Assembly: GCA_964016885.1 (NCBI GenBank)
Contig: OZ024750.1
Span: 18,600,001 to 18,664,000, forward strand
Length of the DNA: 64,000 bases
Direction: 5' to 3'
DNA from: Eledone cirrhosa
Lineage: Eukaryota
The notes beneath the pieces are model-generated. The model was not told the origin of the DNA. It saw only the letters and a program-made list of their open reading frames with translations, and did no database searches. This document shows positions 3,401-44,000 of the stretch, one piece after another (the stretch's first letter is position 1; every line of letters begins with the position of its first letter). Position numbers and translations under genes: made by a program.

Positions 3401-6400
3401 TGGAATGATAGGGACCCCAGTCCCTTCCATCTCATTTCTACAGCTGAGTAAACTGGAGCAATGTGAAATAAAGTGTCTTGCTCAAGGAAACAACACATCA
3501 CCCGGTCTGAGAATTGAACTCACAACCTTTCGATTGCAAGGCCAATGCTCTAACCACTAACTATATATATATATATAAGGATATACGCAGACTAGAGAGG
3601 AACGAAGCTTGCATGCTCCGCTGGATGTGTAATAGTAATATACGTGAACGGCAAAGCATAAACGAACTAAGGAAAAAATTAGAAATAAGAGGGATCAGAT
3701 GTTGTTTACTCGAGAGAAGGCTACGTTGGTACGGACACGTGATGCGCATGAAAGTCGATAGCTGTATAACAAAGTGCAGGGCAATAAAGATAGACGGTAG
3801 CCACGGAATGGGCAGACCTAGAAAATCCTGGGACGAGCTGATAAACTCCGACCTCACACACTTACACCTCTCCAAGACAATGTCACTGGACCAAGACCTT
3901 TGGCGGTACTCAGTAATAGAGAAGACCCGCCTTACCTAAATACATAGTAAAACCTACTACAGCCAGTAGGCATCTCTAACAAAATACACCCCCGTCCCAC
4001 CACCCCCACCCCCTCCTATGTAAAGTTATGTTGGTGCCACACCATCCAGGCCGAAACAAATGAGGTCGTGTAGGTGTCACGACAAAAAAACACACAGTCC
4101 ACGCTGTAATGTGGCCGTGTAGGTAACACGGTAAAAACCTCCCAGCCCCACACTGTAAATGTGGTTGGTGTTAGGAAGGGCATCCAACTGTAGAAAACCT
4201 GCCAGACAGTCCTATGCGAGCAAGACAACCACTCTTGCCTCAAGTGGGAAAACTCCCGTCCAAACCCATGCAAGCGTGGAAGATGGACGTTAAACGATGA
4301 TGATGATATATACACACACACACACAGAGGTGCATAATTAAAAGTATCTACTCACCTCTTTCTCTATTAATTCTTCCAGAGAAATTTCATCTTTCTTTTC
4401 TAACATTTTTTGGTCTTTTTTCAACATAAATCCTTTTGAGGTTAAAAAAGAGAAAAACAGAATGCCTTACTGTAGAGCATGGAAAACTGGACAGAAAAAA
4501 TTTGTGAATGGATAAAGATCAAAGATAAGTGTAAGACATTACAAAAGATTAACTCTTAACATCCTGTACCACATAAAACAGCATTAGCCTGACATTCTCA
4601 GAAAGTACAAAATAGTACTTAACATGTCATTCATTTGCCATATATGCCTCAGTATTGAATGAATAGAAGTAAACATACATACACATGTACACTAGGTCCG
4701 AACACAGAGGAGCTGAACTCCCACTGTCATCACTTCCGTCTCTCTCGCCCTCCTCATCTCTCACTATTATGAGCAGATGGGGGTCCCATGCGTTGGTTGC
4801 CCCATGGCCCTGGTGGGCAGAATAGAGAAGGCGTTTCTTTGGAGGATGGTGAGAGAGATACGCTGGAAAAGCCATTCCATCTCGAGAGGCTCACACCTGC
4901 GGCTAGGCATATGACTATATGACATTAAAAACTGAAGTCTTTACTTGAGTTTACTGTAAACTTTCACAACAATCTGTCCACCAGTAAAATTACTATAAAC
5001 ATTCGATATTTCAATCATTAGAGGATGTTAAGAGTTAAGAAGAGAACATCGAAGTGGGAAAATCATGTGACATATTCAATTGATAACAGATGGACAAAAA
5101 TGTGTATAGAATGGAAACTGAAGAGGACAGGTTCAACTTATCAGAGGTAACAAGACATTTACAAACATATATATCAGATGTATCAGGACATATAAACTAC
5201 TATATATAAAGTTATCCAATGTAATAGAACATATATATATACACACACGCACGCAGTTATGAGACATAAGACACACACGCACCACAGTTATGAGACATAA
5301 GACACACATGCACATATACAATATATAGTTAACATACAGTAGGACACACACACACACACATATATATATATAGTGGTAGAACACTGGAAGGTAATATCCG
5401 TAGTGGTAGAGCACTCAGTCCATGGGACGAGTTAGGTAGAAGTGGTTACACAACAGTTAGTTCACCATACAGAGGACAATTGTTTCTCCTTAGCGGATCC
5501 TCAGCTCGTAAACTCGATTACGAGCTGAGGATCCACTAAGGTGAGACAATTGTTCTCAGTATGGTGAACTAACTGTTGTGTAACCACTTCTATATATATA
5601 TATATATATATTAAATGTATAGGAAAAACAAACACTAGGCGTGAAGTATAGAAAAGAAGTGAAGAATTTTATCAATATATATATATACATAGTTAACAGG
5701 TGTAGTAGGACATATACATACCTGCTGGTAAACAATGCCGATATATACATTTATCGTTGCCATTTGGACAATCCCAAAACCAACCATACTTGCTGTTCTC
5801 GACAGCATCTAAAAAGTATTTGCAAATCTACAAAATAATTATATATGAACATATAAACATGGGGACATATTTATGTAATAAAGTTAAGATATTTTTTTCT
5901 GTAAAGAAACAATACATTCGGAATACATCATATAAACATTTAAGGTGATGGAAGTAGAGTGGATTGGTCCATACACCTTCAAATCTTTGATTTACACATA
6001 AATGACTACAGTAACTCACTGTTTGCTTTTATGCATGAGAATTTACTAAGTTCTAACAATCAGTGATCTAGTTGATGCAATCAGCTGAACAGATATATGT
6101 ACCTTTAATGTCATTGTGTGAGAAGGATAGCCCTTTAAAACACGGGTACAAATCATATTGTCCAACGTGAAATAAAGTGTCTTGCTCAAGGATATAGTGT
6201 CATTGGAAATCAAACTCATGATCTTAAAATTGTGAGCCAAACAACCTAACCACTGAGCCATATACCTTCATTGGTTCTTATACATGTAAGTATGTAATCT
6301 CTTGTACATTCATTACATCTGAGTGCTCTCATATTTAGTTTTCCTCTTAACTCATTTGTGCTTGGCTATTCATGTACGTTAACATTACACGTTATGTTTA

Positions 6401-41020: not shown

Positions 41021-44000
41021 TTACAAAGATTCAATTTCAATTTTAATTTCCAAATAACAAAACAGTTGTCGTTTATTGTTTGATTTTGTTTGAATTTTTA
41101 TTTTTCTGTTTTTGTTCAAATTTACAAATGATTTTCTTGACTGAATAAAATTGACACTGTTTCTGTCTCTTCTTATTGAGTTGTCTACCTTCTCTCTAGT
41201 TCTCCTGTAGATGAGAAAACATAATATGGGAAATTATAATATATATTATGCGTATGTATTTGTGTGCGTGTGTGTGTATATGAAGGTTGTTTGAAAAGTT
41301 CATAGGTTGATCAAGATACTCTCATGGAATGACTAAATAAGGTTTATTTTTCAACATAGTCATTGAAAAGAAAAAATGCAGTTATTAATAAGAAGAGTTG
41401 AAATTAATACATGCAAGATTTTACAGCTCTAGCATCCATCCTTCATAATAGTCAGTCTATGAACTTTTCAGTCAACCCTCATACGTGTGTCTAAGAAGCA
41501 ATGCGGTTTGTTAGTTATGTTAAGAAGTTTGCTTCGCAATCATTAGGTCCCGGGTTTGATACCACTGCATAGCAACTTGGGTAAGTCTCATTTACCCTAG
41601 CCTCAGGTTGACTCATGCCTTGCAAGTGAAACTGGGCAGACAGAAACTATTTGGAAGCTTGTCAGATTGACTGTACCTGTAATTTAATGCTTTAGCATTT
41701 ACATTATTCTATATTTATTATTATATTTTCATGGTAAAGGCTTTTCCTCATATAATTATCTCACATAATATCAAATCTATGAGATTTTGATATTATTTAT
41801 TTTGAAAACAATATGAGTGGCTGGTTACAGCCAGTTTGGACAGAAAGAGATGAGAAAATTCTGGCCGGATACGGCTGGTTTAAATGCTAAAGTGATAAAG
41901 AGCCAGCCTTGTGTTATGCTGAATCTCCCTGAGAACTACATTAAGAATACATGTGTCTGTGGAATACTCAGCCACTAACATGTTAATTTCACAGGTTTCA
42001 CAGTTGATTGAACCATTGGAAAACACATCATTGGAATCAATGAAGCTCCAATAAATGAATGTGTTTGTATGTATATGTGTGTATTTGTGTTTATGTGTGT
42101 GTGCATGTGTTTGTATGTGTTTATGTGTATGTGTTTTTGTATGTGTGCACGTGTTTGTATATATATGTGTGTTTAGGTTTATGTGTTTGTGTGGGTGCAT
42201 GTATTTGTATGTGTTTGTATGTGTGTTTATGTGTATGTGTTTGTGTATGTGTTTTTGTATGTGTGCATGTGTTTGTATGTGTATATGTGTGTGTTTGTGC
42301 ATATCTGCATGTGTATAAGTGTAATATGTATGTGTGTGGTGTGTGTAAGAAATCATAAATAGTCTTACATTGATTCTAAGATCTGGTTGTTCTCCTGTAA
42401 TAAATAAACAGAGAACTGAGTATATTTTTAAAATATCTAAGAAACAAACATACTCCTACACTCAGACAGCACTTCTACACCTAACCAACACATCTATTAT
42501 ATGTGTGTGTGTAGGTGTGTGTTTATGTGTGTGTGTGTGTGATCTGACGAATTCCTCCCCACTCAATAAGCGAGTGAGGTCTGGGATCTTGTCAATTCAG
42601 ACTTTCGGATATGTTTGTATATATCATCATTATCATCACCGTTTGACGTTGATTCTTCTATGTTAACATGGGTTAGACAAGCTGTCCTATTCTGAGCAAA
42701 GGTCAAGTGACCATGATTTGCTTATGATATATATACATATATATATATATATATATATAAAATAAAATAAAATAAATAAGTCAAATGTTTAAAATTTGGC
42801 TTCCTTTATTACTGCTATATATATTTCGGTGACAGCCATCTTTTGCTGTGACCTCTTCAGGCAGTCCGAATTAGTGTGGTAGAGACGAGTACACATGTTG
42901 TTGAGGTGTTTAACTTTCTCAATACTCTGATATGCCCAAGTTCCTGGTTGGGTTGTTGTTTCACTGAGGAACTGGAATCATATGTTGATGGTTATATATA
43001 TATATATATATATAACCATCATCATTGTCATTTTATGTCAATTTTCCAGGCTGGCAGGGGTTGGATGGCTTGTCACAATCTATCGATTGTACCTACAATC
43101 CAAATGAGAAAGATGATGTCTCTCTCACCCATTTGGACTTGGCCCATGACAACACATTCAACCTATGCATAAAAATATATATATATATAATATGGAGGCA
43201 CATGGCTTAGTGGTTAGAGCATTGGCCTTGCAATCGAAAGGTTGGGAGTTCAATTCTCAGACCGGGTGATGTGTTGTTTCCTTGAGCAAGACACTTTATT
43301 TCACATTGCTCCAGTTTACTCAGCTGTACAAATGAGATGATAGGGACTAGGGTCCATATCATTCCACTGCAAAGTGGTCGTGGAGGTGCCACGGCAAAAA
43401 AGCACCCAGCACTCACTGTAAATGAGGTTGGTGTTAGGAAGGGCATCCAGCTGTAGAAATCAAGCCAGAATCAGTTCCCGTCCCACCCTTGCAAGCAGGG
43501 AAAAAGCGGACGTAAAATGAAATGATGATGAATGATGATAAATATATATGTTCATGTTTTCATGTGTCTGTGTGTCTTCCTGGTTGTGAAGAAAATATGT
43601 AACATTAAGAAAGAACTTACGATGGATTATTTTCTTTGTCCTGAAATGAGAAAATATAACAATATTAATTTTAGTATTATTCCCTTGTTTCAGAGTTCTA
43701 AAAATGTGAATAAAAAACATTAATCTTTAACACGCTAGAAATGTTCATGAATTGCTTCCCTTAACACTGTATTATGTATTAAGGGGAGATAACTCTATTG
43801 GCACCTTATATCGCCTAGAGCATGCTAAAGATTAAAAATAATTAAATACTCTCAATAATACATTCCTCTTCACTGCAATCAGAGCAGAGGTGGTAGACTG
43901 CTGGTACGAGACATGAGGTGGAGTGGCTGTTCCAGCACATCTCCATCACCATCCTCCAGGGCAATGTCTTCTCCATCTTTTCAGCCAACACCAAAAGCCC

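Follow-up and report, generated by a model that had tools for sequence, protein, structure and literature searches.

What are the three short inserts, numbered 1 to 3 in order of position, that lie between (AT)n tracts in a 64,000-nucleotide stretch of the Eledone cirrhosa genome (contig OZ024750.1, positions 18,600,001 to 18,664,000, hereafter the window), and do the hammerhead ribozyme motifs that they carry matter to the genes around them? The window is AT-rich animal DNA with a GC content of 35.5%. We consider it probable that the inserts are the dead, 5′-truncated 3′ ends, or pseudo-long terminal repeat (pseudo-LTR) stubs, of three unrelated families of Penelope-like elements (PLEs), most likely families that target (TA)n, Neptune being an example. 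This reading is favoured because the hammerhead, the inverted copy, the optional tail and the (TA)n target match those of published PLEs. A previous reading of the sequence, here termed the original prediction, had proposed several non-autonomous PLE-like or retrozyme-like families. The link to PLEs is well supported, by the anatomy of the inserts and, for insert 1, also by reads; the status of mini-element was not borne out, as most copies of the insert-1 family continue upstream.

Hammerheads were sought on both strands with a descriptor comprising CUGANGA, stem II, GAAA, stem III, UH and stem I, and 200 block-wise dinucleotide shuffles of the window provided the null. Two complete type I motifs were found, both on the minus strand, at 5504-5475 in insert 1 and 42860-42816 in insert 3, against a mean of 0.025 loci in the shuffles, 196 of which contained none. 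In each the stem III is an 8-nt palindrome unable to close as a monomer hairpin. A relaxed scan of the core gave five loci, and a palindromic stem III is present only in the two complete motifs. Insert 2 displays the GAAA, a longer, near-palindromic but imperfect stem III, GUC and a G-rich run that is the putative 3′ strand of stem I; CUGANGA is absent from this insert, where only the 3′ half of a putative hammerhead is found, and we infer that the half-motif was part of a ribozyme. The proposal that every insert carries a whole or partial hammerhead with palindromic stem III therefore stands in full for inserts 1 and 3, and for insert 2 in this qualified form.

On the minus strand inserts 1 and 2 are organized in the same order: (TA)n, inverted copy, axis, direct copy, tail and again (TA)n (Table 1). 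The palindrome of insert 1 (5437-5592) has 75-nt arms, a 6-nt spacer and five mismatches, and that of insert 2 (40687-40851) has 82-nt arms with a single mismatch. In both inserts the direct copy has TA, with which the target starts, at the point of the inner end. Counted from the first C of the hammerhead core, the axis of insert 1 is 7-13 nt to the 5′ side; in insert 2 it lies 19 nt 5′ of GAAA, at the expected place of stem II. Both palindromes had been predicted, with an axis at or within the ribozyme; the palindromes are present, but the axis of insert 1 is just 5′ of the motif. Insert 3 lacks a palindrome, and the 7-nt mirror match at its 5′ junction may record a short fold-back.

The inserts fit exactly between (AT)n tracts (5373-5590, 40631-40873 and 42760-42992) and, as anticipated, tracts were located at all six edges. 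There are 49 such tracts in the 64 kb, so that bounding by (AT)n alone is weak evidence. Each insert occurs once in the window and the three are indeed mutually unrelated, since all five pairwise alignments were non-significant, with scores reached by 362-1977 of 2000 shuffles. A likeness between the tails of inserts 1 and 2 was considered and rejected, as 689 of 2000 shuffles equalled or exceeded it.

Reads were examined over positions 4400-5900 in four of 13 listed runs, a range that includes insert 1 with inserts 2 and 3 outside it. Run X1 is possibly from the window's own sample, X11 is a restriction-site-associated DNA (RAD) run from another sample and study, and X5 is from another organism. 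Loose ends, joints and letter differences are described from the best-supported rows, beyond which there are 1654 loose-end, 169 joint and 255 letter rows. The summed X1 depth is 1.4-6.2 × 10⁵ over insert 1 and 11.5-21.5 in eight unique bins, a ratio of about 1-4 × 10⁴ that is to be read as an order of magnitude only and not as a copy number. In X11 the mean depth per direction is 1250-3500 on 5369-5470 and 0 on 5063-5368. Copies that stop at 5437 and pass into (TA)n account for 1120 reads in X11 and 43 contigs in X1; because so many copies end there, as the inverted arm does, the family has two 3′ ends and a (TA)n target. At the other side 2092 and 792 X11 reads have loose ends with other sequence behind 5511 and 5508, respectively. 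Many copies thus run past these positions, and the window copy is 5′-truncated. Insert 1 is the truncated, inverted end of a longer unit and not a complete mini-element. The multiple, (AT)n-flanked copies that the original prediction proposed to seek were observed for insert 1, the one that reads covered, with a family some 10,000-fold deeper than unique DNA and copies ending in (TA)n. X5 shares the tail region only, because its depth, high on 5369-5470, falls to about 1 on 5471-5521.

The fold-back itself recurs in the insert-1 family at low frequency. The X1 depth at the axis is 740-1899, roughly 0.5-1% of that of neighbouring positions; other X1 contigs cross the axis with two to three fewer spacer letters, and one further contig covers 5379-5556, differing at 20 letters and gapped at 10. 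Family letters differ from the window copy at 5471, 5475 and 5487. At 5475 the family has U at position 17 (99% of X1 depth, 97% of X11 reads) and at 5487 it has U.U at the base of stem II (99.9% and 95%, respectively), in both cases a weaker motif than that of the window copy; the intact GUC and closed stem II of the sense copy are therefore private changes. As predicted, the hammerhead core is kept among copies, with the A of GAAA at 5545 in 99.8% of X1 depth, and one loose-end consensus displays an N7 variant, CUGAAGA. Either arm of insert 1 departs from the family at three positions particular to it, two of these changes being of the CpG-decay type. The five mismatches between the arms fall within 24 of the 75 nt (p = 0.029, post hoc), a clustering that is the sole hint of anything but drift. 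Two further features were discounted. The 1577 X11 molecules that end at 5481 were read as the restriction cut of the RAD library, coincident with AATT at 5478-5481, and a biological reading was dropped. The fall in X1 depth across the cleavage site was not taken to mean that copies start at the cut, as mismatches to the window copy cluster there and short contigs may be lost.

How well does this agree with the PLEs? Published work is cited here and below for the excerpts of each paper that were available. PMC8557442 describes inverted, 5′-truncated PLE copies with a tail of 30-40 bp at one end and a microsatellite bias; PMC4209133 reports thousands of solo minimal hammerheads derived from truncated PLEs, with opposite-strand pairs 100-700 bp apart, and PMC3846280 reports head-to-head palindromes at inverted junctions. 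Four marks of canonical PLEs are seen here: a type I hammerhead with palindromic helix III, complete in two of the three inserts; an inverted 5′-truncated copy arranged head-to-head, in two of three; an optional tail at one end, reflecting two 3′ ends, of 66 and 56 nt; and, for insert 1, dispersed, multi-copy, 5′-truncated relatives. With these four structural marks, and with the gene for reverse transcriptase (RT) and GIY-YIG nuclease unlinked, membership of the PLEs is likely. The clade may be Neptune, to which only the (TA)n target and the hammerhead point.

A plausible route to such inserts can be outlined, for which we infer a parent gene encoding RT and endonuclease (EN). The GIY-YIG nuclease of the element would nick a (TA)n tract and the RT would begin to copy the element RNA at either of two internal start points, which delimit the optional tail. 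PMC11167929 provides a parallel in the Poseidon element PAc, which cuts and extends both strands of AT-rich DNA and has two internal RT start sites that define the tail. Copying would end some 140-230 nt on, close to or at the hammerhead. A second, inverted cDNA, begun at the inner start point, would in inserts 1 and 2 be joined head-to-head, or self-priming might produce the same arrangement. The hammerhead would then be pseudo-LTR cargo, built to act as a dimer in the tandem RNA of the parent. Here it stands isolated, and is either truncated, as in insert 2, or sequestered by pairing with the inverted arm, as in insert 1, so that it is likely to be inert in pre-mRNA.

A number of observations weigh against this interpretation. 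No open reading frame (ORF) for RT and GIY-YIG is linked to the inserts, either within them or in the 30 nt of upstream loose-end sequence. The 44-codon frame of insert 3, compared with 1.84 billion proteins, gave one match, tandem-repetitive and without similarity to RT or GIY-YIG, which was rejected. The tails of 56-66 nt exceed the length stated in PMC8557442. No hammerhead was matched by Rfam, whether in the window as a whole or in either ribozyme region; the predicted motifs are recovered by the descriptor and not by the Rfam models, the output of which consisted of sub-threshold microRNA-type matches to repeats and hairpins together with tRNA-like heads of short interspersed elements (SINEs). 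The consensus in PMC4209133 has a G10.1-C11.1 pair, described as highly conserved, and one additional nucleotide lying after position 9 and before position 10.1. Insert 3 shows the G-C pair but not the added nucleotide; in insert 1 the pair is U-A and in its family U.U, so that the family lacks the conserved pair. The precedent for a U.U base of stem II is an axolotl retrozyme (HHR_Amex2, PMC7229834) and not a PLE. In wider searches, GIY-YIG had no match in the 24 window frames scanned, which were drawn from 166 ORFs plus the frame of insert 3, and exact-pattern scans gave no matches in metagenome contigs or viral contigs.

Of the alternatives, the one that survives best is that the parent units were short, non-autonomous elements of a few hundred bases, retrozyme monomers or mini-PLEs, moved in trans by PLE enzymes, with the window copies truncated and inverted. 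A short segment at very high depth would be explained in this way, as would the U.U pair shared with HHR_Amex2 and, in insert 3, the good folding of the long stem II and of a stem I of 5 bp. In addition a 2026 preprint (bioRxiv 10.64898/2026.07.22.740005) traces the origin of retrozymes to PLE pseudo-LTRs and points to numerous monomers. However, no head-to-tail hammerhead repeat occurs among the 62 tandem-repeat (TRF) rows of the window, and the upstream loose ends, among the best-supported rows, do not return to the tail. An inverted copy with a tail is moreover the described signature of PLE insertions. We judge such a parent unlikely, though not negligibly so.

A further idea concerns the axis: two unrelated families have it at the ribozyme, and for one of them further copies show it again. 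The hammerhead might set where reverse transcription stops and folds back, so that insertions would be born with an antisense arm that locks the ribozyme. We hold this to be a rather doubtful suggestion. Were it true, locked sense-strand copies would persist in introns, and pre-mRNAs would supply long hairpin RNA silencing a family of tens of thousands of copies.

Two host genes are relevant to the question of function. A minus-strand homologue of ZC3H15/Tma46, with a CCCH finger, occupies the region below about 10 kb, and its exon at 5723-5827 matches yeast Tma46 with an E value of 1.2e-16. In run X4 a single contig joins 4431 to 5721 with CT..AC ends; insert 1 is therefore intronic and a spliced form exists, noting that the library type of X4 is not on record and that contigs give no RNA levels. 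A GH18 chitinase, also on the minus strand, is represented by five exon frames with GH18 matches from 50026 to 44275. Inserts 2 and 3 are both 3′ of the last of these, and candidate splice signals at 43640-43621 and 42394-42369 are what would place them inside a chitinase intron. Co-transcription with both genes had been predicted; it is supported for insert 1 by splicing, whilst for the chitinase it depends on those candidate signals. On the same strand, 3′ of the catalytic exons, candidate micro-exons with AG/GT signals are seen at 43640-43621 (20 nt), 42394-42369 (26 nt) and 41204-41189 (16 nt).

Might sense-strand ribozymes have been kept or tuned by the host, cleaving the ZC3H15 or chitinase pre-mRNA? 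We consider this very unlikely. All three inserts have their direct copy in the sense orientation of the nearest gene. In insert 1 the sense copy has three private changes, of which two (C17 and the U-A pair) move toward the canonical motif, and one change in the antisense arm breaks GAAA. The clustered mismatches would agree with this, as would the fold of insert 3 in a 550-nt context, where stem II has a predicted probability of about 0.85 and stem I of about 0.3. However, three of three sense copies in the window gives p = 0.125, and the suggested sense-strand orientation in introns is not established by so few. In context insert 1 is predicted to form a single hairpin of -159 kcal/mol (z -20.6) in which hammerhead stems I and II have a pairing probability of 0.0; stem I remains at 0.0 even when the antisense arm, transcribed before the sense ribozyme in the pre-mRNA, is removed. 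Modelled as buried in its own hairpin, this ribozyme is unlikely to regulate the host gene. Stem III forms no monomer hairpin and its dimer duplexes are weak (-6.4 kcal/mol, and -3.2 kcal/mol for insert 3), and a contig spliced across the intron of insert 1 exists. PLE hammerhead monomers showed no cleavage in PMC4209133 and the PAc hammerhead cleaves only with protein (PMC11167929). Dimer cleavage has been reported (as cited in PMC6765202); the HHR_Amex2 monomer reached 22% cleavage within one hour, and its dimer performed better (PMC7229834). The proposed effect on host RNA processing thus finds no support in the folds, the splicing, the orientation or the published monomers.

That the palindromes are fold-back artefacts of assembly or long reads is highly improbable: although the insert-1 locus is bridged by none of the listed contigs (unique ones end at 5222 and resume at 5646, leaving the palindrome without single-molecule confirmation) and the arms of insert 2 are nearly identical (81/82), the arms of insert 1 differ at five sites with their own departures and CpG-type decay, other X1 contigs reach across its axis, and the asymmetric tail and extra 27-nt fragment are not simple mirror images.

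Table 1. Positions of the inserts, their parts and their surroundings in the window (strand: -, minus; +, plus;., none).
Feature	Position	Strand	Remarks
Insert 1, tail of direct copy only	5373..5436	-	about 66 nt with shared TA; outside palindrome
Insert 1, direct copy	5437..5511	-	5′-truncated at 5511
Insert 1, type I hammerhead	5472..5507	-	core CUGAGGA 5504-5498, 3-bp stem II, GAAA 5486-5483, palindromic stem III 5483-5476, position 17 at 5475
Insert 1, fold-back axis	5512..5517	.	6-nt spacer
Insert 1, inverted copy	5518..5592	+	hammerhead GAGA replaces GAAA (5545)
Insert 1, (AT)n tracts	5360-5372, 5591-5611		first at tail end; second 110 nt from 5′ splice site at 5721
ZC3H15/Tma46 homologue, intron containing insert 1	4432..5720	-	spliced contig (run X4, depth 82) and exon identity
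Insert 2, tail of direct copy only	40631..40686	-	56 nt, ends in (AT)n 40607-40630
Insert 2, direct copy	40687..40768	-	putative hammerhead, 3′ half only: GAAA at 40750-40747, stem III as far as 40729, position 17 = 40728
Insert 2, inverted copy	40770..40851	+	81/82 identical to direct copy
Insert 2, extra 27-nt inverted fragment	40850..40876	+	copy of 40708-40734, runs into (TA)n 40874-40927
Insert 2, (AT)n tracts	40607-40630, 40874-40927		
Insert 3	42760..42992	-	single non-palindromic fragment
Insert 3, type I hammerhead	42811..42865	-	stem I of 5 bp; CUGAAGA at 42860-42854; long stem II with a closing G-C pair; GAAA; stem III palindrome AUAUAUAU; A at position 17 (42816)
Insert 3, 7-nt inverted match spanning (TA)n at 5′ junction	42986..43021	.	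1 of 49 tracts with at least 5 complementary flanking bases
Insert 3, (AT)n tracts	42737-42759, 42993-43014		

Other repeats and genes were noted in passing. The ZC3H15 intron contains, at 4653-4906, another repeat of very high depth (up to 1.4 × 10⁵ in X1, high also in organism B), GC-richer and with no match in Rfam; it shows joints going back 50-80 nt and a common continuation behind 4904-4906, and has weak copies at 43915-43976 and 2672-2709. Short high-depth segments at 4548-4612 and 4922-5003, mutually joined in several contigs and with further copies near 15203-15350, 19969-20130 and 28496-28726, are likely opposite ends of a single repeat that the 4653-4906 element has split. A young, tRNA-headed, SINE-like family, 94-97% alike, is found at 3263-3560, 23207-23333, 24280-24637, 35806-36134 and 43174-43531, with at least two copies adjoining (AT)n tracts. 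An inverted repeat of 33 bp at 2960-3025 is centred on a switch from (ATC)n to (ATG)n, and tandem arrays in 29604-30270 comprise a 71-nt unit (6.4 copies, 98% alike) and an 18-nt unit (12.6 copies). A fragment of a long interspersed element (LINE) on the minus strand at 37951-38913 has RVT_1 matches in two frames (37954-38913); the plus-strand repeat fragment at 48089-48766, with no Pfam match, we take to be LINE-like. The plus strand also carries a single-exon LSm10 gene (55243-55662), which shares 89% identity with a protein of Octopus bimaculoides and 83% with one from Argonauta and so marks the host as an octopod-like cephalopod, and a gene with a ubiquitin-like exon at 20201-20545, presumably NUB1-like.

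The inserts add cephalopod examples to a known pattern. How PLE copies become inverted head-to-head, a mechanism that PMC8557442 names as unresolved, could be tested in the insert-1 family, which is very abundant, has two defined 3′ ends and folds back at a recurrent point. Octopod PLE hammerheads may be undescribed. A search of the literature for hammerheads with Penelope-like elements and octopus found only PMC8557442, closed journals, Repbase/Dfam and supplements being outside its scope, and cephalopod elements or ribozymes may be among the supplementary data of PMC8557442 and PMC4209133. In favour of the PLE reading, PMC13282606 lists Penelope-like families for Octopus vulgaris; in its main text, as available, the word ribozyme does not occur.

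Comparison with known systems places the inserts more closely. No relative of their sequences turned up in the collections searched, and the likenesses are of structure. Naiad PLEs (PMC8557442) share the (TA)n targets, for which they display a bias, and the inverted and tailed structure, and have left remnants in cephalopods, but they lack canonical hammerheads, which are complete in two of the three inserts. Animal non-LTR retrozymes (PMC7229834) are likewise ORF-less, with a type I hammerhead, high copy number and, in HHR_Amex2, the U.U base of stem II. However, retrozymes consist of head-to-tail repeats of 150-450 bp, each with a hammerhead, and yield circular RNAs (PMC7229834; bioRxiv 10.64898/2026.07.22.740005), whereas the window has no tandem units and its copies are inverted and truncated. 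The Poseidon element PAc of Anolis (PMC11167929) has two 3′ ends separated by a tail, an AT-rich target and, by eye, similar AC-rich ends; it differs in preferring ATT to (TA)n and in an ORF that starts inside the hammerhead, no such frame following the hammerheads of the window. The canonical EN-bearing PLEs (Penelope/Poseidon, Neptune, Nematis and Hydra; PMC4209133, PMC8557442) differ from the inserts in the linked ORF, the shorter tail and, for the insert-1 family, in the U.U base of stem II and U17. With the inserts they have in common the type I hammerhead with palindromic stem III, the inverted 5′-truncated copy, the optional tail at one end, dispersed solo stubs and a microsatellite target, in the case of Neptune a (TA)n bias that is hypothesised.

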